Source: Candidatus Aldehydirespirator sp.
Lineage (GTDB): Bacteria > Actinomycetota > Acidimicrobiia > Acidimicrobiales > Aldehydirespiratoraceae
Reading direction: 5' to 3'
DNA: 64,000 bases
Assembly: GCA_965248735.1 (NCBI GenBank)
Contig: OZ252146.1
Span: forward strand, 3,505,605-3,569,604
How positions within the stretch are numbered: position 1 is the stretch's first letter; the number at the start of each line of letters is the position of its first letter. Below the pieces are notes generated by a model. That model worked only from the letters and a program-made list of their open reading frames with translations, had not been told where the DNA came from and ran no database searches. The position numbers and the translations under genes are program-made. Below, in pieces: positions 1 through 54,842 of the stretch.

Positions 1-585
1 CGGGTGACGCGCCTGCGTGACTCGTCCACCCCGAATCACGAGTTCAGGCGGCTGCTGCGGGACCTGAGCTCGGTCCTGGTTTACGAGGCGATGCGGCAGG
101 CTCCGCTCGTGCCCGTCAACCTCACCACGCCCATGGGCCCCGCCACCGGCGTGCGCTTCGAGCGCCTCCCGGTGGTGGTGCCGGTGCTGCGGGCCGGCCT
201 GGGGATGCTCGACGCTGCGCTGGAGCTTCTCGGCGACGTGGAGGTGGCGTTCGTGGGGCTCAGGCGCAACGAGAGCACGCTGGTGGCGCGGGAGTATGCG
301 AGCACCCTGCCCGAGGACCTTGAAGGCCGCGATGCGCTGATCCTGGATCCGATGTTGGCCACCGGAGGATCGTGCGTGCACGCCTGCGAGTTGCTGCGGG
401 CCGCGGGAGCGAGCCGGGTCACTGCGGTGTGCGTGATCGCGGCTCCCGAGGGGATCGAGCGGGTCCGAGACTCCGGGTTGGCCGACGCCGTCTGCGTGGC
501 CGCGGTCGACGAATCGCTCGACGAGAACGGGTTCATCCTGCCGGGCCTCGGCGACGCCGGAGACCGCCAGTTCGACCCGCCGTGA
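1..585 (+). CDS. upp: uracil phosphoribosyltransferase, 5' end outside window
   Basis: ORF 4..585. PRPP-binding loop LILDPMLATGGS and C-terminal GFILPGLGDAGDR are typical of Upp. Similarity to Upp begins about 13 residues into the family, so the true start is probably upstream of the window. Confidence 0.9.
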   Translation, partial: RVTRLRDSSTPNHEFRRLLRDLSSVLVYEAMRQAPLVPVNLTTPMGPATGVRFERLPVVVPVLRAGLGMLDAALELLGDVEVAFVGLRRNESTLVAREYASTLPEDLEGRDALILDPMLATGGSCVHACELLRAAGASRVTAVCVIAAPEGIERVRDSGLADAVCVAAVDESLDENGFILPGLGDAGDRQFDPP

Positions 586-745
586 GCCGGACCCTGATGC
601 CAGCCCCGCAGCCGAGCCGGTCATGAGCCGGGCCCTGCCACCAGCCCCGCAGCCGAGCCGGTCGTGAGCCGGGTCCCATCAGCCTCCGCAGCCGGGCCGG
701 TCGTGAGCCGGGTCCCATCAGCCTCCGCAGCCGGGCCGGTCTCGG
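582..745 (+). repeat. tandem repeat (41,41,39,39 nt) built on the upp stop / next-gene start junction
   Basis: Units start at cGTGAgccgg (582), cATGAgccgg (623), cGTGAgccgg (664) and cGTGAgccgg (703). The first unit contains the upp TGA (583-585). Unit heads resemble the GTGAGCCAG start at 771. Relay ORFs run 582..626, 623..667 and 664..756. Confidence 0.9.
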
Positions 746-770
746 CGGTCGCCTGATTCCGGGGAGCGCG

Positions 771-1703
771 GTGAGCCAGCTTGTCGCGGTGGCGCCAGAC
801 ACCCGTCCCGTGATGCACGGCGCCTTCGTGGCCGCGGTGCACGACGCCGGCGGCGACGTGGCGGTGTCGGCGGCGGAGCTGGCCGAGGCCAAGGCCCTGG
901 TCTGGGCCGACCCGTTCGCGCCCCACCTGTACCCGGATGTGGTCGCCTCGGTCCCGGCCGTGGAATGGGTGCAGCTGCCGTTCGCGGGCATCGAGCCGTT
1001 CATCGACTATCTCGACGCACGCCTGGTGTGGGCCTGCGCCAAGGGCGTGTACGCCGACCCGGTGGCGGAGTGGGTCATGGCCGCGCTGCTGATGGGCCTG
1101 CGCGACTTCCATCTGTTCGCCGCGGCCGACTCGTGGTGCGCCGAGACGGGGCGCAACCTGCTGGGCGCCCGAATCACCGTGCTCGGCGGGGGCGGCATAA
1201 CCCGCTCGCTGCTGCGGCTGCTGGAGCCATGGGATTGCCAGGTAACGGTGGTGCGGCGCTCCGGCGAGCCCGTCGAGGGCGCGGCTCGCACGCTGACGCT
1301 CGCTCGGGTGCACGAAGCGGTGGCGGGCGCCGACGCGGTGGTGGTGGCGCTGGCCCTCACCTCCGAGACCCACCATGTGGTGGACGCGGCCCTGCTGGAG
1401 TCCATGGGGCCCCAGTGCTGGGTGGTCAACGTGGCCCGCGGCGGCCATGTCGACCACGGCGCGCTGGGTGCCGCGCTGCGGTCGGGAGCCATTGCGGGAG
1501 CGGTGCTGGATGTGACCGACCCCGAGCCGCTGCCGGACAGCTCCGAGCTGTGGGCGCTGCCCAACTGCGTGATCACCCCCCACATAGGCAACACCCGCGA
1601 CATGGGACTGCCGCTGATCACCAACCGGGTGCGCGAGAACGTGCGCCGCTGGCTGGCCGGCGAGGAGTTGTTGGGCCTGGTCGACATGGCCCTCGGCTAC
1701 TGA
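771..1703 (+). CDS. D-isomer-specific 2-hydroxyacid dehydrogenase (NAD-binding)
   Basis: 310 aa. Rossmann motif VLGGGGITRS, then VVNVARGGHVDHGAL and the catalytic-His region VITPHIGNT typical of the D-2-HADH family. GTG start preceded by GGGGAG. Confidence 0.85.
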   Translation: MSQLVAVAPDTRPVMHGAFVAAVHDAGGDVAVSAAELAEAKALVWADPFAPHLYPDVVASVPAVEWVQLPFAGIEPFIDYLDARLVWACAKGVYADPVAEWVMAALLMGLRDFHLFAAADSWCAETGRNLLGARITVLGGGGITRSLLRLLEPWDCQVTVVRRSGEPVEGAARTLTLARVHEAVAGADAVVVALALTSETHHVVDAALLESMGPQCWVVNVARGGHVDHGALGAALRSGAIAGAVLDVTDPEPLPDSSELWALPNCVITPHIGNTRDMGLPLITNRVRENVRRWLAGEELLGLVDMALGY

Positions 1704-2877: not shown

Positions 2878-3491
2878 ACAAACAGATCTCGGCGACCAGT
2901 GAGGCACCTCCGAACCACGAGTCCTCTCCTGCTGGCGAGTCCGCCATGAGCGCAGAGTCCTCTCCTGCTGGCGAGTCCGCCATGAGCGCAGAGTCCTCTC
3001 CTGCTGGCGAGTCCGCCATGAGCGCAGAGTCCTCTCCTGCTGGCGAGTCCGCCATGAGCGCAGAGTCCTCTCCTGCTGGCGAGTCCGCCATGAGCGCAGA
3101 GTCCTCTCCTGCTGGCGAGTCCGCCATGAGCGCAGAGTCCTCTCCTGCTGGCGAGGCAATCGTCCTCAACGAGACGATCCACCAGCCGACCCGGCTGCGC
3201 ATCATGACGCTGCTCGTCTCCGTGCCGGAAGCAGACCGGCTGGCCTACGGGTTCATCCAGAAGACACTCGGGCTCACCGGCGGAAACCTGACCATCCATC
3301 TGCGCAAGCTTCAGGAAGCGGGCTACCTGTTCATCACCAAGGAGTTCCAAGGCTCCAAGCCCCGCACCTGGGTGCAGGCGACCACCACCGGGCGTCAAGC
3401 CTTCGCCAAGTACCTGTCGAACCTCCAGAGGGCCCTGGGATTGCGTGTTCAAGAAGCCGCTGTCGACGACGGACGGGCAGGTGGGTTGTGA
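2871..3491 (+). CDS. winged-helix (HTH_34/ArsR-like) transcriptional regulator with repetitive N-terminus
   Basis: C-terminal part IHQPTRLRIMTLLV...GFIQKTLGLTGGNLTIHLRKLQEAGYLFI...RTWVQATTTGRQAF matches the wHTH pattern. ATG 2871 overlaps the upstream stop. Confidence 0.75.
   Translation: MVNKQISATSEAPPNHESSPAGESAMSAESSPAGESAMSAESSPAGESAMSAESSPAGESAMSAESSPAGESAMSAESSPAGESAMSAESSPAGEAIVLNETIHQPTRLRIMTLLVSVPEADRLAYGFIQKTLGLTGGNLTIHLRKLQEAGYLFITKEFQGSKPRTWVQATTTGRQAFAKYLSNLQRALGLRVQEAAVDDGRAGGL
2919..3155 (+). repeat. 36-bp in-frame coding tandem repeat (about 6.6 copies, ESSPAGESAMSA)
   Basis: Identical unit gagtcctctcctgctggcgagtccgccatgagcgca repeated head to tail. Each unit carries an in-frame ATG. 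Confidence 0.95.
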
Positions 3492-3759: not shown

Positions 3760-5361
3760 GTGTTCATGGGTATCGAGACGGCACGACGAGTGCGGGATCA
3801 GGTGCGGGAGGGGCTCGCAGAGCTGATCCGGCTCGTCAACGACCCCTCCACGCCGATTGCGGATGTGCGGGAAGTGCTGAGCGCGTCGAAGGCTCTCGGT
3901 GCTCAGGTGTCGGTGCTGCAGGCCGACGCTGCGGTGGTGGTCTCGGCCCGGGAGCGTCACGGTGATTCGGGTGTCGGGGTGCTGGCGCGGTCAGCGGGGC
4001 TGTCGCGGCGGGACGCGGCGGGGCAGGTCCAGACCGCGCAGAGCTTGCAGTCGATGCCCGCGGTGCGCGACGCGGTGGAGACTGGCCAGATCTCTGTTGC
4101 CAACGCCAAGACGCTGGCGAGAGCTTCAGGCAAGACGAGCGCCGACCAGGTCGACGGCGACGCCGAGTTGTTGGAGAAGGCCGCGGAGATGTCTGTCGAG
4201 CAGTTCGCCCGCGAGGCCGGCCGCTGGGCAGTCAAGCGTCAGGACGACGGCGGTGAGGGTGAGTATCGGCGGCAGCGGGCTCGGCGGCGGTTGAGCATTT
4301 GGGACGGCGATGACGGGATGGTGCATCTGCGGGGAGAGCTGGACCCGGTGGCGGGGGCCAAGGTGCGCAAGCGGTTCTTGTTGGAGGCTGAGCGGCTGCG
4401 GCGTGTGGATCTGCGCAGTCCTGGCGGGGAGAAGCGCAGCCTCAACCAGCGCATGGCCGACTCGCTCGACACTCTGACCGAGCACGGAAGCGTCTACTCC
4501 AAGGCCGGAAGCGCGACACCCAGCGGACACGGCCGTGGCGGCACCGGTGTCGCCACCAATGCCAGCAGGGGCGTGAGCGAGTCTGATCGCGGCTCTAGCG
4601 AGGATCGAGGCGGCGTGAGCCAGAACGGCAAGTGTGGTGACGCGAGCCAGGCCAGTGGCGAGGTGAGCCATGCCGAGAGCGCGAGATTGAGCCTGACCAG
4701 TGGTGGCGATGATTCGAGCCGGACAATCGGCGGCGGTAAGTGCGGGTGTGGGGGTCGGCCGTCGGCTGATATCACCATCGTGCAGCATCTCAGCGCGGAT
4801 GGCACCGACGCGTTCGCGGAGATCGCCGGTGGCGGTGTGATCCCCCCGAGCGTGCTCGAGGAGTATTTCTGTAACGCCCGGATCAAAGGGGTGGTGTTCA
4901 GCCATAAGGGTCTGCCTCTGTGGCACAGCCACGCCAAACGGCTCGCCACCAAGGCCCAGATGAGCGCGCTGCGGACCCTCTACGGAGCATGCGGCGGCTG
5001 CGGCGCCGACATGTGGGTATGCCAGGGCCATCACATCAGACCCGTGTCTGAGGGCGGCACGACTGACATTGACAACATGATGTTGTTGTGCTGGGCCTGC
5101 CACCAGAAGGTGCACCACCACGGTTGGCGGGTGGTGCCCGACGGGCGGGGCCCTCACACCATCGCACCGCCTGAGCGGACCCGCTACGGACCCGCACACG
5201 CCCCCGACCCCCCGCCAGCCCACGGGCCCCCGCCCCCGCGCAATACAGCAAGACACCCCGGGGCAGGCTCCATCGCCCGGGCGGCACCCGACCGAGTCAA
5301 CCTGGCCGAAAGCCCCTTGGCCGAAGCCCAGCAGCCCGAGCCGCTGTTCACCCTCGCCTAG
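3760..5361 (+). CDS. DUF222 / HNH endonuclease family protein (REP13E12-like)
   Basis: 533 aa. The N-terminal helical region is typical of DUF222. The C-terminal HNH motif is CGGCGADMWVCQGHHIRPVSEGGTTDIDNMMLLCWACHQKVHH. AT-rich upstream flank. Confidence 0.85.
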   Translation: MFMGIETARRVRDQVREGLAELIRLVNDPSTPIADVREVLSASKALGAQVSVLQADAAVVVSARERHGDSGVGVLARSAGLSRRDAAGQVQTAQSLQSMPAVRDAVETGQISVANAKTLARASGKTSADQVDGDAELLEKAAEMSVEQFAREAGRWAVKRQDDGGEGEYRRQRARRRLSIWDGDDGMVHLRGELDPVAGAKVRKRFLLEAERLRRVDLRSPGGEKRSLNQRMADSLDTLTEHGSVYSKAGSATPSGHGRGGTGVATNASRGVSESDRGSSEDRGGVSQNGKCGDASQASGEVSHAESARLSLTSGGDDSSRTIGGGKCGCGGRPSADITIVQHLSADGTDAFAEIAGGGVIPPSVLEEYFCNARIKGVVFSHKGLPLWHSHAKRLATKAQMSALRTLYGACGGCGADMWVCQGHHIRPVSEGGTTDIDNMMLLCWACHQKVHHHGWRVVPDGRGPHTIAPPERTRYGPAHAPDPPPAHGPPPPRNTARHPGAGSIARAAPDRVNLAESPLAEAQQPEPLFTLA

Positions 5362-8943: not shown

Positions 8944-9912
8944 TCACGCGGCGGCGAGCCTTCCAGTGGCCCGCTCCCGGCGGAACCGGATCAGCAGCTC
9001 CCGAATGCCGGGCGGCTCGTACCCGAGGACTTCCCTGGTGCGCCGCACGCTGAGACTGGTGTCATAGGGGATCGGGAAATCGCCCACCGCGCCCGCAGCC
9101 GATGTGTCGGGCGGTGTCGAGCTCAGCAGGGCCGGGTCGAGATCGAAGACGTCGCAGGCTATGCGGGCCAGCTCCATACGACCGGTCGACTCGGCCCCGC
9201 AGCAGTGGAAGACCCCGACGGCGGACTCGGCGGCCGCGATGCGCCACATCACCTCGGCGCACTCGCTGGCCAGCGACGGGGTAGCCGCCATGTTGATGTT
9301 GTCGGCCTCCCAGACCGCGAACTGCCGGCCGGCCTCCAGCGCGTCGACGATCGAAGTGACGAAGTAACCGAAGCCGCCGTCCTGCACCCGGGGCGTAGAG
9401 TCCCGCATCCGGTGCATACCGCTGACCGCCGACACCCGGGCCACCGCGGCCCGCCCGGCGCTCAGCATCGCGGCCTGCTCGCTGGCCATCTTGAGCACCC
9501 CGTAGAGATTCACCGGGTTGGGCGGCGTGTCCTCGTCGGCACCGGACTGGGTGCCGTCGAACACCCAGTCGGTGGACACCACGATGAGCTTGGCCCCGAC
9601 CTCGTCGGCCGCCCGGGCCAGAGTCTCGGTGGTGCCGACATAGCTGCGCCAGGCCAGGTCGCGGTCGGCGTACATGGCCGCGAAGTCGTTGAGGATCATC
9701 GAATGCACGATCACATTGGGTCCGAACGCGGCCACGCTGGCCCGCACGGCTCCGTCGTCGAGCAGGTCCAGGCGCTCCGTGGTGAACCCGCTCGATTCAG
9801 CGGGAACGAACCGGTGGACCGGGCAGTGCACGTCGGCTAGGTGGCGCTCGGCGAACACTTTGACAATGTTGGACCCGACGAAGCCGGTGCCTCCGGTCAC
9901 ATAGGCGCGCAC
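8944..9912 (-). CDS. NAD-dependent epimerase/dehydratase (RmlD-like sugar nucleotide-binding protein)
   Basis: N-terminal RAYVTGGTGFVGSNIV Rossmann motif and extended-SDR layout. GTG start. Confidence 0.8.
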   Translation of the reverse strand: MRAYVTGGTGFVGSNIVKVFAERHLADVHCPVHRFVPAESSGFTTERLDLLDDGAVRASVAAFGPNVIVHSMILNDFAAMYADRDLAWRSYVGTTETLARAADEVGAKLIVVSTDWVFDGTQSGADEDTPPNPVNLYGVLKMASEQAAMLSAGRAAVARVSAVSGMHRMRDSTPRVQDGGFGYFVTSIVDALEAGRQFAVWEADNINMAATPSLASECAEVMWRIAAAESAVGVFHCCGAESTGRMELARIACDVFDLDPALLSSTPPDTSAAGAVGDFPIPYDTSLSVRRTREVLGYEPPGIRELLIRFRRERATGRLAAA

Positions 9913-9939
9913 AGCGGCATCTCCCCAGTGGCCATCACC

Positions 9940-10068
9940 GAATTGGCAGTGTTGTGCTCACATACCGTGCAACACACTGCCAATTCCAATCTGCACCCGC
10001 CTGGATCACCCCGTTCGAACCGAACTGGCAGCATTCTGCTCGCAAACCGTGCAACACACTGCCGATTC
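9940..10068 (-). promoter_or_regulatory. two tandem 47-nt inverted-repeat elements between iolG and the epimerase gene
   Basis: 9940-9986 is gaattggcagtgttgtgc-tcacatacc-gtgcaacacactgccaattc. 10022-10068 is gaactggcagcattctgc-tcgcaaacc-gtgcaacacactgccgattc. The right arms are near identical. No U-tract follows. Confidence 0.5.
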
Positions 10069-10099
10069 GCTCGGCGGGAGCAGGCGGGTCGCATCTCTC

Positions 10100-11110
10100 T
10101 CAGCCGATCTCTGAGATGGCCACCGGGCGGCCCTCTCGGACCGAAGCCCACGCGGCCAGACCCATCACCAGCGGGGCGCGCCCGTCGGCCAAACTCACCG
10201 GCGACGGCGCGCCGTTCACCATGGCAACGAAGGCGTCCCACTCGGCCAGATACGACGCGGTGTAGCGCTCCAGGAAGAAGTACGGCAGCGGCGGCCCGTG
10301 GGACCCTTCCGGCCCCCAGTAGAGCGCGGTTGCCGCGGGCGGGTTCTGGGAGGTGGCCATGCCGCCCGAGCCGAACGCCTCCACCCGCTGGTCGTAGCCG
10401 TAGACGGCCCGGCGGCTGTTGTCGATGGTGGTGATGGCGCCGTTGGCATGGGTCACGACCACCACGACGGTGTCGAGGTCGCCGGCCTCGCCTATGGCCG
10501 GATCTACCCGCACCGCGCCGGTTGCGTATACCTCGACCGCCTCGCTGCCGATGACGAACCGAGCCATGTCGAAGTCGTGGATCGTCATGTCGCAGAAGAT
10601 CCCGCCGGACACCTCAATGTAGGCGATGGGCGGCGGGTCGGGGTCGCGGCTGGAGATGCGTACCAGGTGCACGTCGCCCACGTCGCCGGCGGCCACCCGG
10701 TCGCGCACATGGCGGTGGGCCGCGTCGAAGCGGCGGTTGAAGCCCACCTGCACCGCGATCCCGGCCTCGGTCGCCGCCCCGATGCCCCGGTCCACCTCGG
10801 CCAGGTCCAGAGACAGCGGCTTCTCGACGAAGGCAGGCTTGCCCGCGGCCGCGACCTCCACCAACAGGTCCATGTGGGTGTCGGTGGAGCTGCAGATGGC
10901 CACGGCGTCCACGTCGTCAGCCTCGATCAGCTCAGTTGCACTGGACGCCCGCCGGGCGCCGAAGGTCTCCGCGACCGAGATGGCCATGTCGGCAGCAACG
11001 TCGTAGACAGCGGCAAGGGCCGTGCCCGGGACCCTGCGAGCGACCAGGTCGGCGTGCATGGAGCCGATACGCCCACACCCGAGCAGCCCGATGCGCACTC
11101 GTTCACTCAC
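10100..11110 (-). CDS. iolG: Gfo/Idh/MocA oxidoreductase, probable myo-inositol 2-dehydrogenase
   Basis: N-terminal IGLLGCGRIGSMHA and the AFVEKPLS (EKP) motif. GTG 11110 is preceded by GGAGAGGGGAG. iol operon context. Confidence 0.8.
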   Translation of the reverse strand: MSERVRIGLLGCGRIGSMHADLVARRVPGTALAAVYDVAADMAISVAETFGARRASSATELIEADDVDAVAICSSTDTHMDLLVEVAAAGKPAFVEKPLSLDLAEVDRGIGAATEAGIAVQVGFNRRFDAAHRHVRDRVAAGDVGDVHLVRISSRDPDPPPIAYIEVSGGIFCDMTIHDFDMARFVIGSEAVEVYATGAVRVDPAIGEAGDLDTVVVVVTHANGAITTIDNSRRAVYGYDQRVEAFGSGGMATSQNPPAATALYWGPEGSHGPPLPYFFLERYTASYLAEWDAFVAMVNGAPSPVSLADGRAPLVMGLAAWASVREGRPVAISEIG

Positions 11111-11760
11111 CGCGCCGTGCTCCCCTCTCCAGCTCCCCGCAACCAGCCCGACCCGAAGGAGCACTCACCGCGCCGCCTCCCATGGCCCGGATCGTTGTCG
11201 ATCGGCCAGCCTGCATCGCGGCCGGCGCGCTCACCGCGCCTCGGCCTGCTGGCGGGGCGCGAGGAGCGACACCAGCCGGCCGTTACGCCGTCCACGTCGT
11301 AGACCTGCATCGCGGCCGGCGCGCTCACCGCGCCTCCGCCCCTCACGGCCACGGCCACGCCGTCCACGTCGTAGACCTGCATCGCGGCCGGCGCGCTCAC
11401 CGCGCCTCCGCCCCTCACGGCCACGGCCACGCCGTCCACGTCGTAGACCTGCATCGCGGCCGGCGCGCTCACCGCGCCTCCGCCCCTCACGGCCACGGCC
11501 ACGCCGTCCACGTCGTAGACCTGCATCGCGGCCGGCGCGCTCACCGCGCCTCCGCCCCTCACGGCCACGGCCACGCCGTCCACGTCGTAGACCTGCATCG
11601 CGGCCGGCGCGCTCACCGCGGTTCCGCCCCTCACGGCCACGGCCACGCCGTCCACGTCGTAGACCTGCATCGCGGCCGGCGCGCTCACCGCGGTTCCGCC
11701 CCTCACGGCCACGGCCACGCCGTCCACGTCGTAGACCTGCATCGCGGCCGGCGCGCTCAC
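11107..11760 (-). repeat. 72-bp tandem repeat (6 intact copies plus about 218 nt of decayed copies) forming one 217-codon bridging ORF
   Basis: The gctcaccgcg junction motif recurs at 11325, 11397, 11469, 11541, 11613, 11685 and 11757. There are two unit variants (gcctccgcc and ggttccgcc). GTG 11760 overlaps the desaturase TGA. The open frame ends with TGA 11109-11107, which overlaps the iolG GTG 11110. Confidence 0.95.
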
Positions 11761-13214
11761 CGCGGTTCCGCCTGCTGGCGAGGAGCGAGGCGCGACACCA
11801 CCCGCCCGTTGCGCACGGCCACGTCGTAGAGGGTGATCGGCTCCGTCGCCGGGAAGCGCAGGGCCTCCCCGGTGCGCAGGTCGAAGCAGCCGCTGTGCTT
11901 GGGGCACTCGATCATGCCGTCGAGCACGGCTGCCTCGGCGAGGTGGGCCCTCCCGTGGGTGCACAGCCCGTCACTCAGCACGAATTCCGCGGTGGGCTCA
12001 ACGCCCCCGGTCTCGGCATCGACCTCGACCCGGTACAGGGCATAGGTGCTGTCACCGTGGTCCACCCGGCGCGCCGATCCGGGGCTCAGACCCTCGGCCG
12101 CGCCGAGGTCGACCAGCCCGTCGTGCACCTCCCCGGCCCACGCGGTGACCCCCGTGTCCACGAACGACCGCTCCTCGCCGGCGACCTCGGGCACGTCGGG
12201 ACGGGGCTCGTCATAGGACGGGTCGCGCCACTGGCGGCGCAGCGTCGCCAAGATCCGCCGGTAGGCGGTCAGCGTGGACGGATCCGGCGGGGCCAGATAC
12301 TCCTTGATCTCGGCATGGAGCGCCGGCAGCGCGTAGTAGGGCACCGTCGGGAAGATGTGATGCTCGACGTGATAGTTCATGTTGGAGTACAGGAACCTGA
12401 GCACCGGGTTCATGTACACCGTGCGGGAGTTGAGGCGATGGTCGAGCACGTCCTCTCGCAGACCCGCATGCTGCGTGACCGCGAAGAACACCATGAGCCA
12501 GGCCCCGTAGACCGTCGGCAGCCCGATGTACAGTGCCGGCACGATCGAGCCGATGGCCACGCACCACACCGCGGTGCCGGCCAGGACGGCGATGTAGGCC
12601 CGCGACTCCCACTTGAGCTTGCCCAACTCGTCGGCGGGGATAAAGTCCCGGGCGTCGTCGTCGATGCGTCCCGCGGCGTGCTTGAGGGTGCGCCACATAG
12701 CCCGGGGGACGTTCAGCACCGGCACGAACACGCCCAGCACGGCCCGCGGTGACGAGGGACGCGAGAACACGATCTCGGGGTCGCGCCCCACGACGATGGT
12801 GTCGGTGTGATGGCGCACATGCGACCAGCGCCACAGGGTGGGCTGGCGCAGCAGCATGAACGACGCGATGTAGTAGACGACATCGTTGAGCCACTTGGCC
12901 CGGAACGCGGTGCCGTGCCCGCACTCGTGCCAGCGGGAGTCGCCGGCGCCGCCGTAGAGGGCACCGTAGGCCATGAACGCCGGCACCGCCCACCACGAGC
13001 CCAGCGCGCGGAAGGCGAGATAGCCGAAGACGGCCAGCAGACCGAGCCACATGATCGTGTCGCGGGCCGCCCGGGCGTTCGTGCGGACCTGCAGAGCCCG
13101 CAGCCGCTCGGCGTCGATGGGCGGGCGGAACCACTCGGCCTCAATCAGGCCGAGATCCACCGCCCGCCGCGAGTCCGCTCCGGTCAGGCCGTAGTCGCGA
13201 ACGGTCGCGGTCAC
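11757..13214 (-). CDS. membrane fatty-acid-desaturase/hydroxylase-family di-iron protein fused to a C-terminal Rieske [2Fe-2S] domain (MocD+MocE-like)
   Basis: His boxes HECGH, HVRHH and HVEHH lie in a polytopic N-terminal part. C-terminal CTHGRAHLAEAAVLDGMIECPKH fits the Rieske pattern (CxH-16-CxxH). Confidence 0.85.
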   Translation of the reverse strand: MTATVRDYGLTGADSRRAVDLGLIEAEWFRPPIDAERLRALQVRTNARAARDTIMWLGLLAVFGYLAFRALGSWWAVPAFMAYGALYGGAGDSRWHECGHGTAFRAKWLNDVVYYIASFMLLRQPTLWRWSHVRHHTDTIVVGRDPEIVFSRPSSPRAVLGVFVPVLNVPRAMWRTLKHAAGRIDDDARDFIPADELGKLKWESRAYIAVLAGTAVWCVAIGSIVPALYIGLPTVYGAWLMVFFAVTQHAGLREDVLDHRLNSRTVYMNPVLRFLYSNMNYHVEHHIFPTVPYYALPALHAEIKEYLAPPDPSTLTAYRRILATLRRQWRDPSYDEPRPDVPEVAGEERSFVDTGVTAWAGEVHDGLVDLGAAEGLSPGSARRVDHGDSTYALYRVEVDAETGGVEPTAEFVLSDGLCTHGRAHLAEAAVLDGMIECPKHSGCFDLRTGEALRFPATEPITLYDVAVRNGRVVSRLAPRQQAEPR

Positions 13215-13291
13215 TGCGGCATCTCCGCGGTCAACAGTTCCGGGCCCGATTCCGGTCCGGGGAGGCCGTAGTCGCGCACGATCGTCCTCAT
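13211..13291 (-). other. 26-codon relay ORF made of a copy of the desaturase head plus the SDR tail
   Basis: ATG 13291 overlaps the SDR TGA (ATGA). TGA 13213-13211 overlaps the desaturase GTG 13214 (GTGA). The peptide is MRTIVRDYGLPGPESGPELLTAEMPQ; compare the desaturase head MTATVRDYGLTGADS and the SDR tail PGPELGPRPAESGTQP. Confidence 0.5.
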
Positions 13292-14142
13292 GGCTGCGTT
13301 CCCGACTCAGCCGGCCGCGGACCCAGTTCCGGTCCGGGGAACACAGAGTCGCCCGCGCCCAGCACGGTCTGGTCCCACTCCACCACCGCGCCGGTCATCA
13401 TCCCCGACTCGGCCGTGGCCAGATGCACGATCGTGCGGGCGATCTCGGAGGGCTTGATCAGCCGGCCGAAGGGCATCTCGGCCTCGGCCCGCTCCAGCCA
13501 TCCGTCGGTGGCGCCGCCGAAGGTCCGCTGCACGATGTCCTCGGCGGGGGTGTCCATCCATCCCGGGCACAGCAGGTTCACGCGGATCCGGTGGCGCATC
13601 AGCGCGAAAGCCAGGTTGCGGGTCATCGCCACCAGCGCCCCCTTGGAGGTGGCATAGGGCAGCAGCTTCGGCGGGCCTCCCCGACCGGCGATCGAGCCGA
13701 TCAGCACGATGGTGCCCTCGACGGACTCTCGGGCCATGATCCGGGCCACCCCTTGGCTGAGCAGGCCCGGCGCCTTCACGTTGACGGCCAGCATGGCGTC
13801 CCACAGCTCGGGCGTGGCGTCCCACACCGAGCCCCGGTCGGTGACGGCCGCGCAGTTGACGAAGCTGTGGCAGGTGCCGAATCTCTCGTCCAGGGCCACG
13901 ATCACCGTCTCGCAGGCATCGGGATGGGCAAGGTCAGCGGCCACGAACTCCGCCCGGCATTCAGGCGTTCGCAGCGAGGCCGCGGCAGCCTCTCCCTTGG
14001 CCCGGTCCCGACCGACCAGCATGAGCCCGGCCGCCCCCTCCGACACCAATCGCTGGGCCACCGCGTAGCCAAGACCCTGGGAGCCGCCGGTGACCAGCGC
14101 GATTCCACGGCTGAACGAACCAAGAGGACGCGGCTCGGTCAT
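13288..14142 (-). CDS. short-chain dehydrogenase/reductase (SDR)
   Basis: ALVTGGSQGLGYA cofactor motif and classical SDR length. ATG 14142 chosen because everything upstream is the 35-bp repeat. Confidence 0.85.
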   Translation of the reverse strand: MTEPRPLGSFSRGIALVTGGSQGLGYAVAQRLVSEGAAGLMLVGRDRAKGEAAAASLRTPECRAEFVAADLAHPDACETVIVALDERFGTCHSFVNCAAVTDRGSVWDATPELWDAMLAVNVKAPGLLSQGVARIMARESVEGTIVLIGSIAGRGGPPKLLPYATSKGALVAMTRNLAFALMRHRIRVNLLCPGWMDTPAEDIVQRTFGGATDGWLERAEAEMPFGRLIKPSEIARTIVHLATAESGMMTGAVVEWDQTVLGAGDSVFPGPELGPRPAESGTQP

Positions 14143-14425
14143 GCGGCCGCGGTCCCAACCCCGGCAGGCTCGGTCATGCGGCCGCGGTCCCAACCCCGGC
14201 AGGCTCGGTCATGCGGCCGCGGTCCCAACCCCGGCAGGCTCGGTCATGCGGCCGCGGTCCCAACCCCGGCAGGCTCGGTCATGCGGCCGCGGTCCCAACC
14301 CCGGCAGGCTCGGTCATGCGGCCGCGGGTCCCAACCCCGGCAGGCTCGGTCATGCGGCCGCGGTCCCAACCCCGGCAGGCTCGGTCATGCGGCCGCGGTC
14401 CCAACCCCGGCAGGCTCGGTCACCG
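14132..14425 (-). repeat. 35-bp tandem repeat (8 intervals, one of 36) encoding a chain of 7 relay mini-ORFs upstream of the SDR gene
   Basis: Minus-strand unit ATGACCGAGCCTGCCGGGGTTGGGACCGCGGCCGC. Start codons at 14423 (GTG), 14388, 14353, 14317, 14282, 14247, 14212, 14177 and 14142 (SDR). Each 12-aa ORF MTEPAGVGTAAA ends in an ATGA shared with the next start. Confidence 0.95.
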
Positions 14426-14454
14426 ACCCGCGCACCCAGCTCCGCACGACACGG

Positions 14455-16338
14455 TCACCAGCCCACCCGCTGGGCGGCGCGGCCCGCGTCCATCGCCGCC
14501 CTGGCCTCCTTCACCGAGGCGCGGCCGCTCACCTCGGGCACGCCCACCTCCCAGAACGAGCCGCCCTCGGTCCAGCGGTGGGGATGGGTCTTGAGGGCGA
14601 TCACGTAAGTGCGGTCGGAGGCTCTGGCCCGCTCGATGGCCGACTCCAGCTCGGAGATGGAGCCCACCGTCTCGGTCTCGCAGCCCATCGAGGCCGCATG
14701 GGCCGCGAAGTCGACAGCGACCAGCCGCTCGGTGCGGCAGTCCTCGAAGAGATTGTTGAACGAGGCGCCGCCCTGATTGACCTGGAGCCGGTCGATCACC
14801 GCGTAGCCGCCGTTGTCGGCCACGATCACGATGAGCTTGTGCCCGGTGAGCACCGTGCTGTACAGGTCACTGTTCATCATGAGGTAGGAGCCGTCGCCCA
14901 GCAGCACCACCACCTCGCGCTCGGGCATCGCCATCTTGGCGCCCCAGGCGCCTGAGATCTCGTAGCCCATGCACGAGTAGCCGTACTCGCAGTCAAAGGA
15001 ATGCACCGTGCGGGCGCGCCAGCCGTTGACGAGCTCGCCGGGCAGGCCCCCGGCCGCGGCGACGACGTAGGTGGAGGCGTCCGCGGCCCGGTCCACCGCC
15101 CCCACCACCTGGGCGTAGGTGGGCAAGTCGGCGTGAGGGTCCGAAGATCGGTCGCCGCCGGTGGCCGCGACAGTCACTGGCGCGGCGATCTTGTCGATGT
15201 AGGCGTGGTACTGCGCGGTCTCCGACGCAGCCCGCACCGTCCAGTCGCCGCTGGCCCGGTAGTCGCTGAGGGCCGTGCCCAACTCCCGGAGGCCCTCGCG
15301 GGCGTCGGCCACTAGCGGCAGGCACATGTGCTTGGTGGCATCGAAGCGGGCCGCGTTGAGCCCGACGATCTCTGCGGACTCGTCGCCGAACACCGTCCAT
15401 GAGCCGGTGGTGAAGTCCTGCATTCTCGTGCCCACCGCCAGCACCACATCGGCGTCGGCGGCCATGGCGTTGGCCGAGACGCAGCCGGTCACTCCGATGG
15501 GGCCGCAGTTCAGCGGATGGTGCGCCGGCAGTGAGGTGCGGCCCGCGGTGGTCTCTACCACGGGGATGCCGTGGGCTTCGGCGAAGGCGGCGAGCTGCTC
15601 CTCCGCCAGCGACCAGCGCACCCCTCCGCCCGCGATGATGAGGGGGCGCTCGGCTCGGGCCAGCGCAGCCGCGGCCCTTCGCAGCTCGCCCGCGTCGGGG
15701 CGGGGCCGGCGGATGTGGTGCACCCTCTCGGCGAAGAACCCGACCGGATAGTCGTAGGCCTCGGCCTGAACGTCCTGGGGCAGGGCGATGAAGGCCGGGC
15801 CGCAGTCGCCGGGGTCGAGCATGGTGTTGAGAGCCTGGGGCAGCGACTGCACCACCTGCTCGGGGGTGGTGATCCGGTCCCAGTAGCGCACTACCGCCCG
15901 GAAGGCGTCGTTGACGGTGGTGGCCGGCGCCCCGAAGTGCTCCACCTGCTGCAGCACCGGGTCCACGATGCGATGCTCGAAGGTGTCGCCGGCCAGCAGC
16001 AGCAGCGGCAGCCGGTTGGCGAGCGCCACCGCGGCCGCGGTCACCATGTTGGTGGCGCCGGGGCCGATCGAGCTGGCCGCCACCATGATCCGGCGGCGCT
16101 TGGCGGCCCGGGCGAACCCGCAGGCGGCCAGCGCCATCCCCTGCTCGTTCTGGCCCCGCCAGGTGGGCAGCACATCCTGTGCCTGCTCGAGCTCGTGGCC
16201 GAGGCAGGTCACGTTGCCGTGGCCGAATATGGCGAACACGCCCGCGAACAGCGGCACCACCTGACCGTCGACCTCGATGCGCTGGGCAGCCAGGTAGCGC
16301 ACCACGGCGCCCGATGCAGTCAGCCTGATCGTGTCCAC
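14455..16338 (-). CDS. iolD: 3D-(3,5/4)-trihydroxycyclohexane-1,2-dione acylhydrolase (ThDP-dependent)
   Basis: 627 aa with ThDP-enzyme layout and the GDGSYLM cofactor motif. The N-terminus IRLTASGAVVRYLAAQ is typical of IolD. Confidence 0.9.
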   Translation of the reverse strand: MDTIRLTASGAVVRYLAAQRIEVDGQVVPLFAGVFAIFGHGNVTCLGHELEQAQDVLPTWRGQNEQGMALAACGFARAAKRRRIMVAASSIGPGATNMVTAAAVALANRLPLLLLAGDTFEHRIVDPVLQQVEHFGAPATTVNDAFRAVVRYWDRITTPEQVVQSLPQALNTMLDPGDCGPAFIALPQDVQAEAYDYPVGFFAERVHHIRRPRPDAGELRRAAAALARAERPLIIAGGGVRWSLAEEQLAAFAEAHGIPVVETTAGRTSLPAHHPLNCGPIGVTGCVSANAMAADADVVLAVGTRMQDFTTGSWTVFGDESAEIVGLNAARFDATKHMCLPLVADAREGLRELGTALSDYRASGDWTVRAASETAQYHAYIDKIAAPVTVAATGGDRSSDPHADLPTYAQVVGAVDRAADASTYVVAAAGGLPGELVNGWRARTVHSFDCEYGYSCMGYEISGAWGAKMAMPEREVVVLLGDGSYLMMNSDLYSTVLTGHKLIVIVADNGGYAVIDRLQVNQGGASFNNLFEDCRTERLVAVDFAAHAASMGCETETVGSISELESAIERARASDRTYVIALKTHPHRWTEGGSFWEVGVPEVSGRASVKEARAAMDAGRAAQRVGW

Positions 16339-29823: not shown

Positions 29824-29879
29824 CTATGATCAATTCTGAACCTATGATGTACCATAAGTTATAATTCATCATAAGTTAT
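29824..29879 (+). promoter_or_regulatory. AT-rich candidate promoter/operator region of the giant gene
   Basis: TATAAT at 29860-29865. Direct repeats CATAAGTTAT at 29853-62 and 29870-79 (each contains the small palindrome ATAAGTTAT). CTATGAT at 29824-30 and 29842-48. The local AT content is very unlike the flanks. Confidence 0.4.
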
Positions 29880-29895
29880 CGTTGACTGGAAGTCA

Positions 29896-32800
29896 TTGTC
29901 TCTGACGTCTTGCGCAAGGAATCCGCCGGGGGGTGTGGGCGTGCGTGAGCGACCGCGCCGACAGGTGTCGGTGGCGGCGCTGCTGACCGCGGCGCTCCTG
30001 GCCGTGGCCGCGCCGACGCCTGCTCACGCCGACTCGCATCCGGTGGTGACGGTGGCTGCGGGCACGGTGCCGAACACGTTCAGCGCCACCGACGACGACC
30101 CGCACGACACCACCTGGCACTACGCGTGGATCACCGGCAGCGACCCGTGCGGGCCCTCGACCACGTTCCCGTCTGCGCAGACCTACGCCGAGGGCAACGA
30201 CGTCTCCTATGGCACCAGCAACCTCGGCCAGAGGCTGTGCTTGCGCGCCGTGGACTCCAGCAGCAACACGGGCTACGCCACGTCGGACATCGTCGACCAC
30301 CTGGCCCCACCCAGGGTCCCGTTCCGAATCGGCGAGATCATGGCCACGCCCGGCGACGAGTCGGTCACCCTCACATGGGAGGCGCCCTACGACGGCGGCT
30401 CGCCCATCACCCAATACGTAGTCCTCAGCAACCCACCAGGCGGCCTCTGCATCACCAGCGTCCCGGGCTGCACCATGACCGGGCTCGCCAACGGCACCGC
30501 CTACGACTTCGAGGTGAGCACCTTCAACGCTATTGGCTACGAAGACTCCTTCTTCCCGCTACAAGTCACACCCACCGCCGACCCACCGGCCACAGACCCA
30601 CCAGCCACAGACCCACCGGTGACCGACCCACCGGCCACAGACCCACCAGCCACAGACCCACCGGTGACCGACCCACCGGCCACAGACCCACCGGCCACAG
30701 ACCCACCGGTGACAGACCCACCAGCCACAGACCCACCGGTGACCGACCCACCAGCCACAGACCCACCGGTGACCGACCCACCAGCCACAGACCCACCGGT
30801 GACCGACCCACCAGCCACAGACCCACCGGTGACCGACCCACCAGCCACAGACCCACCGGTGACCGACCCACCAGCCACAGACCCACCGGTGACCGACCCA
30901 CCAGCCACAGACCCACCGGTGACCGACCCACCAGCCACAGACCCACCGGTGACCGACCCACCAGCCACAGACCCACCGGTGACCGACCCACCAGCCACAG
31001 ACCCACCGGTGACCGACCCACCAGCCACAGACCCACCGGTGACCGACCCACCGGTGACCGACCCACCGGCCACAGACCCACCGGCCAAAGACCCACCGGT
31101 GACCGCACCAGGCGGAAGCGGAGGCAGTGGGTCCTCGGGCGGCGACGGTGAGCGCGCCGCGCGGACTACGGAAACGACGACGCTGTCGGGCATCACCGTC
31201 GATGGGACCGCGATCCCCGACTTCGATGCGGAGCGGGACTCGTACACGGTCGGGCTCGCCAACGGCGTGGCCACCGCGACCGTGGCGGCCACACCGACCG
31301 CGAGCTCCGCCACCGTGACGTGCTCGGTCGATGCCGATGGCAATGCGGCCGGATGCCAGGTCGCGCTCACGGCGGGCGCGGGAGTCGACCTGACCCTGAC
31401 CGTGACCGATAGCTCGGCAACGATGGACTACACGCTCACGCTCAACCGCGGCCTGACCGGCACCTTCGCGTGGAAGGCGTCCGACGACATCTACGGCCTG
31501 GCCGCCGTGCTTGGAGAAAACACCAGCAGGACGAGGGGCATTTGGAGCGACGGCACCACGTTGTGGGTCGCCGACAATGACCGAAGGAATTCGAAGCTGG
31601 TCGCCTTCAACCTCGAAACCAAGGCACGACAGTCGCTCAACGACATCAACACGGGTGCGAGCGACCTTCTTCATGTGCGCAGGCCGGTGGGCGTCGCGGG
31701 AACTGACGACGGCTCGGTGCTGGTCGCCCGCAGACACAACGGACTCACTGAACAGGCCAGGATTCAAGGATTCCGTCGAAACGACGCATCAGAGTGGCAG
31801 CCCGACATCGAGGAGAGCTATGTACTGCCGTCCGATATTATTCTTGCTCCGTCAATCAGAGGCATCTGGACTCACGGAGAACGGCTGTATATCGCCGACG
31901 ATAGCTCAGACAATGCGGTCTTGGCATTCACCTGGAACTCTGACCGCTCCAACATGGTGCACGATTCCCCCGGGGACATCACTCTCGCCAGCGAGAACGA
32001 CAGTCCGGCCGGCATATGGTCCGACGGCGAGACGATATGGGTCGCCGACGCCCTGACGGAACGAATCTTTGCCCACAAGACGGTCGACGGCCAGCGTGAC
32101 ACCGCCAAGGAGTTCACCCAGAGCCACCTGACCGTGAAGGACACTCCCATCAAACCCTGGGGCATCTGGTCCGACGGCGAGACGATGTGGGTAGTCGACC
32201 GCGGCACCGCGATCGTCTACTCCTTCAACCTGCCGGTGTCGAACAACCCGGGGCTGAGTCAGCTCGAGGTTCAGCACGGGGAGGATCCTGTCGAGCTCAG
32301 TGTGGCCGAGACCACGCACACGGTGGTGCTGCCGGGCAGTCCGACCTCGACAACGTTGACGATTGCGCCGCGCAACCGCTTCGCGACCGTAGACGTCCTC
32401 CCGGCCGATGCCAACCTCAGCCTCGGCGGGTACCAGGTCGACCTGACCGGCGGCCCGGTCGAGGTCACGATCACGGTGACCGCGGCCGACGCCACAACAA
32501 GGCAGGTCTACACGGTCACGGTCGGGCCCGCGCCACTCGAGATCACGAGCGTCATCGCGACGCCCAACACCCGTCTGCTGCAGGTGAGCTGGCACGAACC
32601 GTCGAACAGCGCGACCTTGGGCGTGACCGCCTACGACTTGCGCTACGCACGCACCGACGCAGACAACCTCGAGAACGACGACCAGTGGACCGTGATCGAC
32701 GATGTCTGGACCACGGGCGGCGGCGACCTCTCCTACATCCTCAGGGGATTGACCAACGGTCAGGCCTACTACGTCCAGGTGCGCGCGGTCAACGCCCTGC

Positions 32801-53453: not shown

Positions 53454-54320
53454 CTACCTCACACCCGCCACGACCACCGCAGGCTTCGCGCCCTCTCGAA
53501 ACGGCTCGTAGACCGCGAGCAGTCCGCCCTCGGAGTCGTGCACCGCCCACGGGCCGGCGCCCGCCGCGCCCAGGCGGTCGAGGTCCAGAACCCGGCCGTG
53601 GGCCACCTCCGCGGCCACTGCGGGACCCACCCGCACACCCGACAAGTGCTCGACGGACCTCGACATCGGCAGGACCTCGGGCGACTCCACCGGACGGGCC
53701 TGAGCCAGCCCGAAGCCTCCCACCGCGGTGCGGCGGAGGCATCTCAAGTGGGCGCCCCCTCCGAGCGCCCGGCCCAGATCCGCGGCCAGCACCCGCACGT
53801 AGGTGCCCGACGAGCACTCCACGGCGGCGCGGAGCACGCCCTCGCGGCCTGGCGCTGAGGCCACCTCGAAGCGGTAGACCGTGACGGGCCGCGGCTTGCG
53901 CTCCACCTCCACACCCTCCCTGGCCAGCTCGTGGAGCCTCCGCCCTCCCACCTTCACCGCCGAGACCATGGGCGGCACCTGAAGGATGTCGCCGGTCAAC
54001 GAGGCGGCCGCTTGGCGCGCTTGAGTCTCGCTCACGCCGTCCATCCGGTGGCGTGCCGTCACCCGTCCCGCCGAATCGAGGGTGTCGGTCTCGACTCCGA
54101 GCACGATCTCCGCCTCGTAGCTCTTGGGCAGCTCGGTGAGGAACCGCAGCAGCCGGGTGGCCCGGCCGATTCCGAGCACGAGAACTCCGGTGGCGTCGGG
54201 ATCGAGGGTGCCGCTGTGCCCCACCTTGCGGGTGCCCAGCACGCCCCTCGCCTTGGCCACCACGTCATGGCTGGTCCACCCCGCCGGCTTGTCTATTACT
54301 GCGATCCCGTCAAGCAGCAT
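53454..54320 (-). CDS. truB: tRNA pseudouridine(55) synthase
   Basis: HSGTLDPDATGVLVLG catalytic motif. Synteny with rbfA and ribF. Confidence 0.92.
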   Translation of the reverse strand: MLLDGIAVIDKPAGWTSHDVVAKARGVLGTRKVGHSGTLDPDATGVLVLGIGRATRLLRFLTELPKSYEAEIVLGVETDTLDSAGRVTARHRMDGVSETQARQAAASLTGDILQVPPMVSAVKVGGRRLHELAREGVEVERKPRPVTVYRFEVASAPGREGVLRAAVECSSGTYVRVLAADLGRALGGGAHLRCLRRTAVGGFGLAQARPVESPEVLPMSRSVEHLSGVRVGPAVAAEVAHGRVLDLDRLGAAGAGPWAVHDSEGGLLAVYEPFREGAKPAVVVAGVR

Positions 54321-54443
54321 CAGCTGGCGGGATCCGCAGCGCGGGCCATACCGTCGAGCACTGTCAGCTCTCCGGATCGGCGGCGCCGGCCATACCGTCG
54401 CTCTCCGGATCCGCAGCGCGGGCCATACCGTCGAGCACTGTCA
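54320..54443 (-). repeat. duplicated rbfA/truB junction (77 + 41 nt) with two relay mini-ORFs
   Basis: GTG 54438..TGA 54364 encodes VLDGMARAADPESDGMAGAADPES. GTG 54361..TGA 54320 encodes VLDGMARAADPAS. The last TGA shares its A with the truB ATG. Heads resemble the truB start MLLDGI and tails resemble the rbfA end LLDGMAGAADPES. Confidence 0.85.
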
Positions 54444-54842
54444 GCTCTCCGGATCGGCGGCGCCGGCCATACCGTCGAGCAGCCTCTCTATGCGTTCGGC
54501 CGAGCGCAGCGCGGTGTCCGGGCGGAACACCAGCTCGGGTGTGCGCCGCAGCCGGGTCTGGTCCCCGACGGTGCGCCGCAGTTCGCCAGCGTGTTCCTCG
54601 AAGGCCTCGGCTATGTCGATGTCGCCGTCGTCGTCGTCGGTATCGCCCAGCGACGTGAACCACACCACTGCTCGGTGCAGGTCACGGTCCACATCCACGG
54701 ATGTCACCGACACCATGGCCAGCCGGTCATCGTCCAGTTGCTCCATGGACTCGGCGACTATGCGCCTGATGAGCTCGCCTACCCGGGCGGTGCGGTGACC
54801 GGCCCGGTGGTCGGGCTGGGAGCGTCTCGTGCGTCGTGTCAT
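54441..54842 (-). CDS. rbfA: ribosome-binding factor A
   Basis: RVGELIRRIVAESMEQL...VSVTSVDVDRDLHRAVVWF is typical of RbfA. Synteny between infB and truB. Confidence 0.88.
   Translation of the reverse strand: MTRRTRRSQPDHRAGHRTARVGELIRRIVAESMEQLDDDRLAMVSVTSVDVDRDLHRAVVWFTSLGDTDDDDGDIDIAEAFEEHAGELRRTVGDQTRLRRTPELVFRPDTALRSAERIERLLDGMAGAADPES

Follow-up and report, generated by a model that had tools for sequence, protein, structure and literature searches.

How does an operon junction at which, in most relatives, the stop codon of one gene directly overlaps the start codon of the next come to hold 650 nt of tandem repeats, and what is the open reading frame (ORF) that runs through them? The question is raised by the junction between a desaturase-Rieske gene and an iolG-like gene of Candidatus Aldehydirespirator sp., in a window of 64,000 nt (contig OZ252146.1 of assembly GCA_965248735.1, positions 3,505,605 to 3,569,604; "the window" denotes this whole 64-kb stretch, and positions are counted from its first nucleotide unless a related locus is named). 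In our judgement the spacer is very probably a tolerated, young variable-number tandem repeat (VNTR) that derives from the locus itself, i.e. from a coupled NTGA junction in which start and stop codon overlap, and its ORF of 217 codons (ORF217) is incidental and possibly translated. The case rests on the anatomy of the repeat, on its copy number in close relatives, and on its likeness to the ends of the flanking genes.

Anatomy of the spacer

Tandem Repeats Finder (TRF) reports a single array in the minus-strand spacer (11285-11772; period 72, 6.8 copies, 99% matches, score 934), and the 69-nt core of the unit occurs exactly six times, with no occurrence elsewhere in the 64-kb window and 0 expected in shuffles. 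The six 72-nt units named in the original prediction, which had been made by reading the DNA alone, are thereby borne out. Together with older copies they make up the 650 nt between the desaturase-Rieske stop and the iolG-like start (Table 1). The first and long copy, copy A, is the only one that belongs to a gene, and TRF extends the array into it as far as 11772. Every 72-nt unit carries GCGGTGAG, and the units are identical apart from AACC or GGC before the junction: the variant AACC-GCGGTGA is found at the desaturase end and in units 1-2, and GGC-GCGGTGA in units 3-6 and the next copy, so that the reported arrangement of the variants in blocks is confirmed. The units align to copies A and B with a single internal deletion of 22 nt.

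The 218 nt that follow the units had been described as decayed units. They are more than that: a partial unit of 44 nt runs into the longer and older 94-nt copy B, after which comes a stretch of about 99 nt with one further GCGCGGTGAG junction (11164-11173). Copy B is a diverged version of the full-length gene end and predates the 72-nt units; in its own frame it encodes NGRLVSLLAPRQQAEAR before the stop, versus NGRVVSRLAPRQQAEPR in the desaturase gene, whose C-terminus is intact and agrees with the orthologues. The copy B variant NGRLVS also equals an allele of the related locus L165 (P0130).

Table 1. Features of the desaturase/iolG junction and of further gene junctions in the 64-kb window.
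Feature	Position	Strand	Basis
Upstream gene, FA_desaturase + Rieske fusion (MocD/MocE-like), 485 aa	11757..13214	minus	Pfam, orthologue C-terminus
Downstream gene, GFO/IDH/MocA oxidoreductase (iolG-like), 336 aa	10100..11110	minus	Pfam
ORF217, 217 codons, GTG 11760 to TGA 11109-11107	11107..11760	minus	ORF anatomy
Copy A, 95 nt: last 70 nt of the desaturase gene + GTGA overlap + 21 nt	11736..11830	minus	alignment
Six 72-nt units, phase TCTACGAC...GCGATGCAGG	11304..11735	minus	TRF, exact counts, alignment
Copy B, 94 nt: diverged full-length desaturase 3' end + GTGA + same 21 nt	11210..11303	minus	alignment
Oldest spacer part, ~99 nt	11111..11209	minus	common to L161 and L162/163/166/167
IolD/SDR array, 35-nt units x 8.3, each with SDR start ATGACCGAGCC	14132..14457	minus	ORF anatomy
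SDR/desaturase copy of desaturase 5' end, 77 nt, filling a 73-nt spacer	13211..13291	minus	ORF anatomy
upp/2-hydroxyacid dehydrogenase spacer, 39-41-nt units with upp stop context (C/T)[AG]TGAGCCGG	582..775	plus	
rbfA 3' end + stop duplicated, 77 nt x 1.9, 100% match, at the rbfA/truB junction	54320..54481	minus	

Copy number in related genomes

Relatives were gathered by a scan of species-representative genomes, which gave orthologous loci in Acidimicrobiia metagenome-assembled genomes (MAGs; 72-85% protein identity, same gene order), and by a protein search, which gave a 90% cluster of 174 members with a representative 96% identical to the window protein; nine contigs with members of this cluster were compared. 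The junction was examined in 20 related Acidimicrobiia loci, and the motifs of unit and tail were searched in 169 loci. The desaturase stop overlaps the iolG start, as NTGA, TAATG or NTGNNTGA, in L002, L004, L005, L008-10, L019, L081 and L082, and three much closer relatives (L164, L165 and L168) likewise show a direct NTGA overlap and no spacer; L165 reads ...GAAGCGCGGTGAGTGAACGAGTGCGC, which is the iolG start of the window set on the desaturase stop. Spacers at the same junction are found in L001 and L003 (54-57 nt), L006 (97 nt) and L007 (25 nt), that of L003 deriving from a copy, now decayed, of the 3' end of its own desaturase gene (1/2000).

The same repeat as in the window is present in five of the close relatives. 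L162, L163, L166 and L167 have a spacer of 193 nt that consists of one 69-nt unit and the old tail, without copy B, and L161 has one of 361 nt that comprises two complete units together with copy B and this same tail. Since its nucleotide identity to the window is 97.1-98.7% over iolD, desaturase, iolG and epimerase, four of the five genes compared (the short-chain dehydrogenase/reductase gene, SDR, is at 93.9%), L161 is to be regarded as the same species; among the other eight contigs, identity was computed for L162, L164 and L165, which are at 87-94%. The number of units accordingly runs from 6 in the window and 2 in L161 to 1 in L162, L163, L166 and L167 and 0 in L164, L165 and L168, as in a VNTR. 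This series strongly supports the stepwise expansion suggested beforehand, by slippage or unequal exchange. Direct copies of the junction lie on either side of the spacer, and its loss to an overlap, by exchange between the outer copies, should therefore be as easy as its gain. From this we infer that the process is reversible, which would account for overlaps turning up at scattered places among the lineages with spacers.

In L169, which has no array, 14 nt that resemble the unit, GAGGGGCGGAAGCG, are inserted into the 3' end of the desaturase gene (4400-4470), which introduces a premature TGA and leaves a desaturase of 473 instead of 485 aa. The insertion may be what remained when an array was lost; alternatively, it may point to the way in which the short unit acquired its odd middle. 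GAGGGGCGGAAGCG equals part of the short unit of the L162 type, and the units of the window read ...GGAACCGCG or ...GGAGGCGCG at this place.

Origin of the repeat from the gene junction

The original prediction had held that the units resemble both flanks, and alignment against shuffled controls upholds this for the upstream flank. Copy B aligns locally to the desaturase 3' end, over 70 nt, with a score of 83, against a maximum of 36 among the shuffles (0/2000), and the unit shares TCTACGACGTGG.CG.GCG with the desaturase 3' end (14/2000 shuffles). The junction 10-mer GCGCGGTGAG occurs nine times in the window where 1.1 are expected, and seven of these lie in the spacer, the iolG start itself included. 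Beyond this 10-mer, the likeness to the downstream flank is lost: the stretch of 36 nt behind the GTGA in copy B, the first 21 nt of which are present in every copy, is unlike the 5' end of the window's own iolG. The simple formula of a unit composed of the desaturase 3' end plus the 5' end of the adjacent iolG was given up for its second part, which holds only for the iolG of relatives. To these 5' ends the same 36 nt do show a left-anchored resemblance (L002, 10/3000; L001, 22/3000; L004, 51/3000), which gives moderate support to an original duplication that spanned the junction and reached into iolG. Taken together, copy B, the unit alignment, the enrichment of the 10-mer and the iolG 5' ends of relatives speak for an origin from the junction. 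The motifs of unit and tail, too, occur at the desaturase/iolG junction only, both among the 169 loci and in the window.

Two further comparisons add little. Between copies A and B, five of the eight differences fall on third codon positions, as read by eye, which is not significant (p ~0.09 by our own binomial estimate). An alignment test for copies that span a stop codon found 6 matches in 129 cases within the clade versus 1 in 244 elsewhere; it was too insensitive and is used as weak support only, and it missed the present array, since no more than 19+11 nt of the gene end remain in the unit.

The comparison with relatives shows the following course of events. The spacer arose when the 3' end of the desaturase gene was duplicated in tandem together with the GTGA junction and, probably, the opening ~20-25 nt of iolG; one copy then lost 22 nt, giving rise to the 72-nt unit; and the number of these units has since risen and fallen by slippage or unequal exchange, to 0, 1, 2 or 6. 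Both proteins remain unchanged throughout because the first copy stays joined to the body of the desaturase gene and the last junction to iolG, and duplications at junctions can therefore survive where duplications within genes would not. As each copy contains NTGA, the process spares both genes and at the same time yields ORFs coupled to both neighbours. The series in the relatives illustrates that a compact overlapping junction can become a long spacer and, as argued above, collapse back.

The bridging open reading frame

An open frame of 217 codons that overlaps the desaturase stop at one end and the iolG start at the other had been predicted, and ORF anatomy agrees. Its GTG overlaps the desaturase TGA (11759-11757) to give GTGA at 11760-11757, and its own TGA overlaps GTG 11110 of iolG to give GTGA at 11110-11107; the repeat peptide is AVSAPAAMQVYDVDGVAVAVR. 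The possibility that this frame encodes a linker protein has not stood up. ORF217 has no homologue at E<=1e-3 among 5.8 billion proteins and no Pfam match. In L161 a single missing G (gcgatgcag-tctacg) brings a TAA into frame after 62 codons, at a distance of 173 nt from iolG. In L162 a 66-codon ORF starts from the desaturase stop (ATGA), runs through the shared tail in a frame other than the window's and has the second TGA of GTGAGTGA (-8) as its stop.

Such a frame is, moreover, easily obtained. Four of the six frames are open across the array, and the tail, when shuffled by dinucleotides, stays open in 31% of the trials. Closure at the 3' side is automatic, as two frames end in the start context of iolG, GTGAGTGA (at -4 and -8), and the only other one is that in which iolG itself is read; since the copies bring NTGA with them, inserted DNA almost automatically forms a stop-to-start ORF. 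The GC content at the three codon positions (GC1/2/3) is gene-like in the array frame (0.82/0.54/0.96), a property taken over from the parent codons, since YDV of the desaturase is still read in its original codon phase in the unit; in the tail GC2 is 0.73 and not gene-like. From a single sequence AlphaFold2 models stacked beta-hairpins, one per 24 residues, with a predicted local distance difference test score (pLDDT) of 80-92 over the repeats and a predicted template modelling score (pTM) of 0.71. Searched against the PDB, the model finds only insignificant beta-helix or amyloid-like matches (best E 0.07). Its hairpin propensity is plausibly inherited from the C-terminal strands of the Rieske domain, and a confident model of this kind says nothing on expression. 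Neither homologues nor conservation of the frame in relatives, as one would expect of a protein-coding gene, were found, and the comparison with relatives shows ORF217 to be an incidental by-product of the repeat whose peptide is not conserved.

Signals and translational coupling

A Shine-Dalgarno-like GGGGAG lies at 11120-11125, 9 nt before GTG 11110 of iolG, and is present in the spacers of L001 and L003 too; iolG can probably also initiate on this site of its own. We found no sigma-70-like promoter, no intrinsic terminator and no Rfam match at gathering score in the spacer. A single unit (as DNA, on either strand) and the iolG leader fold no better than shuffles do (z ~0); three units folded as RNA reach z = -2.6, which we attribute to pairing between identical units, and the array does not qualify as a structured RNA by folding or by Rfam. 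GTGCTCC, after the junction motif at 11168, and GGAGCAC, which overlaps GGGGAG, form a perfect inverted repeat of 7 bp (11120-11165, minus strand) that would sequester the ribosome-binding site of iolG unless opened by translation from upstream; the overall z-score of folding around it is not significant.

NTGA is the commonest arrangement for translational coupling, coupling decays over +50 to +350 nt unless relayed, and short ORFs can serve solely to deliver ribosomes (PMC12548453). With NTGA at both of its ends, the anatomy of ORF217 would fit a possible relay of this kind: ribosomes may, after terminating on the desaturase, start anew at GTG 11760 and so reach the iolG start, which would limit polarity across the 650 nt, and the copy number may shift the ratio of desaturase to IolG. 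As 72 is a multiple of three, a change in copy number would leave the route of the ribosomes to the iolG start unaltered. The allele of L161, on the other hand, indicates that an intact relay is not required.

Junction duplications elsewhere in the window and in the lineage

Besides the one between desaturase and iolG, there are four more junction duplications in the window (Table 1). At the IolD/SDR junction the unit length of 35 nt is 2 mod 3, and the array therefore forms eight mini-ORFs chained to one another by NTGA, of which seven have 12 codons and one has 24. In L161 the corresponding array (4744-5041) has 36-nt units x 8.3 that are 100% identical and fused in frame to SDR; a 1-nt indel (35 versus 36 nt) has thus been homogenised across whole arrays. 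The array of the window keeps one 36-nt unit, at which two units are fused into the 24-codon ORF (ATG 14353, stop 14281). Other relatives show a plain GTGA overlap at this place (L005), a 38-nt duplication (L001-3) or 33 nt x 2.8 (L004). At the SDR/desaturase junction a 26-codon ORF, MRTIVRDYGLPG..., copies the N-terminus of the desaturase, starting on the SDR stop (ATGA) and ending on the desaturase start (GTGA); the 77-nt copy is expanded to 2.3-3.3 copies in L164 (2864-3041), L165 (2781-3035) and L169 (2858-3035).

At the remaining two junctions, the 2-hydroxyacid dehydrogenase gene downstream of upp starts with the 10-mer GCGCGGTGAG (766-775), as does iolG, and the short ORFs at rbfA/truB end at a TGATG overlap with the truB start. 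The epimerase/iolB junction of relatives holds similar structures: in L162 (6814-6967) a 51-codon ORF links the epimerase stop (GTGA) to the iolB start (ATGA), and in L082 (7624-7799) the epimerase 3' end is duplicated (93 nt x 1.9).

Arrays with a period of 30-150 nt amount to 6.0 per 100 kb in the clade, versus 0.34 and 0.66 in other loci of high and of low GC, respectively; as the loci of the clade are partly orthologous, the resulting ~10 to 20-fold higher density than in the other taxa sampled is a rough figure. The periods at junctions are 35, 38, 41, 77, 77 and 95 (2 mod 3) and 33, 36, 39, 69, 72 and 93 (0 mod 3).

Likeness to known repeat systems

The closest known counterparts are the mycobacterial interspersed repetitive units (MIRU), the VNTR of the Mycobacterium tuberculosis complex (Supply et al. 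1997, as cited in PMC4803746; summarised in PMC12548453). Both they and the array of the window have units of 40-100 bp (here 72 nt x 6 and copies of 94-95 nt), lie inside an operon of a high-GC actinobacterium, between genes of the same orientation, differ in copy number from strain to strain and carry ORFs that overlap the flanking stop and start at a -4 spacing, here at both ends. The -4 overlaps of MIRU are thought to allow insertion into operons with little effect on the downstream gene, and their ORFs to deliver ribosomes (PMC12548453). MIRU differ, however, in being a dispersed family, regarded as mobile, with a shared consensus at about 40 loci. Our arrays each derive from the ends of their own flanking genes, and units at different junctions are unrelated; the desaturase/iolG unit is confined to one junction in the 64-kb window and in the 169 loci, and a 37-mer of it has no match in the contigs of the JGI metagenomes, where a protein-based scan gave nothing closer than 84%. 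The host, moreover, belongs with the Acidimicrobiia, as the MAGs related to it, and not with Mycobacterium, and the likeness considered here is one of anatomy. The array is thus MIRU-like in anatomy and probable behaviour, yet in everything searched it does not belong to a dispersed consensus family of the kind that defines MIRU.

With termination-reinitiation coupling at NTGA (PMC12548453) the locus shares its ancestral junction, a canonical -4 overlap, and spacer ORFs that keep -4 (or -8) at both ends like the short delivery ORFs described there. The delivery ORF would here be one of 217 codons, or a chain of eight mini-ORFs, of variable length, and the coupling is a predicted one.

Ordinary bacterial VNTR and contingency loci are generated by slipped-strand mispairing; classic contingency repeats have units of 1-8 nt inside coding regions or promoters and there switch genes on and off. 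Like such loci, our arrays have near-identical units in head-to-tail order, blocks of variants, copy-number differences between strains and homogenised indels; unlike contingency loci, they have units of 33-95 nt, lie across gene boundaries and leave both genes intact. Intergenic spacers that result from tandem duplication and decay of one copy have been described for organelle genomes, and there, as here (copy B, the L003 spacer, the 93-nt copy of L082), the spacer is a decaying duplicate of the adjacent gene end. What differs is the setting in a bacterial operon, the repeated and reversible duplication, and its centring on overlapping stop and start codons. The units being contiguous and head to tail, the array is not a CRISPR; this candidate was dropped, as were a repetitive extragenic palindromic (REP)-like hairpin element, a programmed frameshift and a readthrough fusion to the desaturase, for want of any supporting feature.

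Weighing the explanations

We rank the tolerated junction VNTR first and a selected relay or rheostat, in which NTGA-linked ORFs pass ribosomes from gene to gene and the copy number tunes the enzyme ratio, second. Several observations count against the former. In the window an unbroken NTGA chain extends over iolD, the eight mini-ORFs, SDR, the 26-codon ORF, the desaturase, ORF217 and iolG, and no period of 1 mod 3, with which ribosomes, once restarted, would cross the next start out of frame, was found among ~9 independent junction duplications (p ~0.03, post hoc); both hint at selection on the reading frame, which would be unexpected under a purely neutral process. Polymorphism within the species is known from two alleles, one conspecific genome having been found. 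The oldest ~99 nt have no significant similarity to either flank, nor have the oldest pieces of the tail to the spacers of L001, L003 and L006 or to the desaturase 3' end, so that foreign DNA may conceivably have been inserted at the outset. Translation of the relay and any effect on iolG, finally, are what we infer. The selected relay gains from the chain, from the missing period class, from the -4 overlap at both ends of ORF217, from a 72-nt unit that preserves the frame at any copy number, and from the decay of coupling over distance and the role ascribed to MIRU ORFs (PMC12548453). It is weakened by L161, where it is broken and its rescue needs a restart at a GTG 10 nt upstream of the stop, by the Shine-Dalgarno-like site that iolG has of its own (also in L001 and L003), by the automatic 3' closure in GTGAGTGA, and by the many close relatives that do without any spacer; the mod-3 pattern, post hoc and drawn from a small sample of partly dependent events, is a lead and not a result. 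On balance we consider selection for a relay or rheostat rather unlikely. A bolder version, that junction minisatellites in this Acidimicrobiia lineage are selected and self-generating “ribosome relay” spacers of which only lengths of 0 or 2 mod 3, harmless to the frame of the ribosomes, are kept, seems to us equally doubtful; if true, it would mean chains of NTGA-linked ORFs (12 in the window, from iolD to iolG), enzyme ratios of operons tuned by copy number, and an in-situ route for MIRU-like elements.

The other explanations fare worse. That a mobile element of the MIRU type entered at the start codon of iolG, with the junction duplicated as its target-site repeat and the units amplified later, would agree with the CGCG[AG]TGAG that bounds the ~190-nt form of L162 on both sides, with the oldest ~99 nt that neither flank can supply, and with the insertion of MIRU at start codons with a -4 spacing (PMC12548453). 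Unit and copy B are, however, copies of the adjacent desaturase 3' end, no second copy of unit or tail exists in the window or the 169 loci (nor of the unit in the JGI metagenomes), and the other junction arrays have unrelated units from their own flanking gene ends, which makes an inserted element very improbable. Still less credible is ORF217 as a real, newly born beta-hairpin repeat protein: the AlphaFold2 scores, the gene-like GC1/2/3 and the codon phase kept from the YDV...V.V strand of the Rieske C-terminus would suit it, but the method is expected to model perfect repeats with confidence, the tail is not gene-like, homologous, Pfam and structural matches are lacking, and the frame is cut to 62 aa in L161 and changed in L162. 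A repeat falsely expanded by assembly is the least probable of all; the genome of the window is absent from all collections searched, yet five samples, assembled independently, contain the same array at other copy numbers and with private substitutions, and neither the blocks of two variants nor the older copies at their flanks look like products of mis-assembly.

If the tolerated junction VNTR is the right explanation, ORF217 is ordinary, and it is the recurrent process at junctions and the natural allelic series that deserve attention. New are the in-situ origin of such arrays at NTGA junctions in Acidimicrobiia, shown by comparison, and their apparent reversibility, which offer an in-situ route to a MIRU-like anatomy in a second actinobacterial class. 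For annotation they are a warning: such ORFs are by-products even if they have a high GC3 and are confidently folded by AlphaFold. The dense arrays of this lineage also provide natural constructs for the study of relay reach and operon stoichiometry.

Flanking genes and minor observations

Both flanking genes are intact in the window. The upstream gene scores 7.7e-39 for FA_desaturase and 3e-10 for Rieske in Pfam, and some sources label relatives of this fusion “MocE subfamily”. The iolG-like gene starts in the context GCGCGGTGAGTGA, and its start fits orthologues of the type VS[DE].VR[VI]GLLGCGRI. The neighbours form an iol-type cluster with a PfkB kinase, a second GFO/IDH/MocA gene, a thiamine pyrophosphate (TPP) enzyme (IolD-like), the SDR, an RmlD-like epimerase, KduI/IolB and a DeoC-type aldolase, and because of them the label iolG of the original prediction suits the context; it fits the GFO/IDH/MocA Pfam domains too. 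A role as myo-inositol 2-dehydrogenase is putative, and a second gene of this family lies in the same cluster. Exact look-ups of the desaturase, iolG and SDR proteins of the window gave no identical record in the collections searched.

Among the relatives, L161 has a 45-nt in-frame tandem duplication inside SDR (5040-5130; PLGSFSRGIAL.TGG twice), before the Rossmann glycine motif. L001 (9500-9614) and L004 (9549-9662) have two tandem 60-nt units directly after the epimerase stop, each with an internal inverted repeat, TCTCGGGT.GG...CAACCCGAGA; these are intergenic repeats of the hairpin type and not junction copies. Across 8944-16305 of the window the desaturase gene is 93-94% identical in nucleotides to L162, L164 and L165, iolD, iolG and epimerase 87-90%, and SDR 88-93%, a mosaic that suggests recombination.

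Two further repeats of the window lie outside the iol-type cluster. A perfect in-frame repeat of 36 nt x 6.6 (2919-3155, plus strand), ESSPAGESAMSA in n copies, encodes the N-terminal tail of a winged-helix (HTH_34) regulator, the ATG of which overlaps the upstream stop (ATGGTGA); every 36-nt unit contains ATGA. A single open frame of ~5,975 codons (29875-47799, plus strand) contains repeats of 30 nt x 17.5 (30580-31105) and 192 nt x 2.8 (47103-47643).

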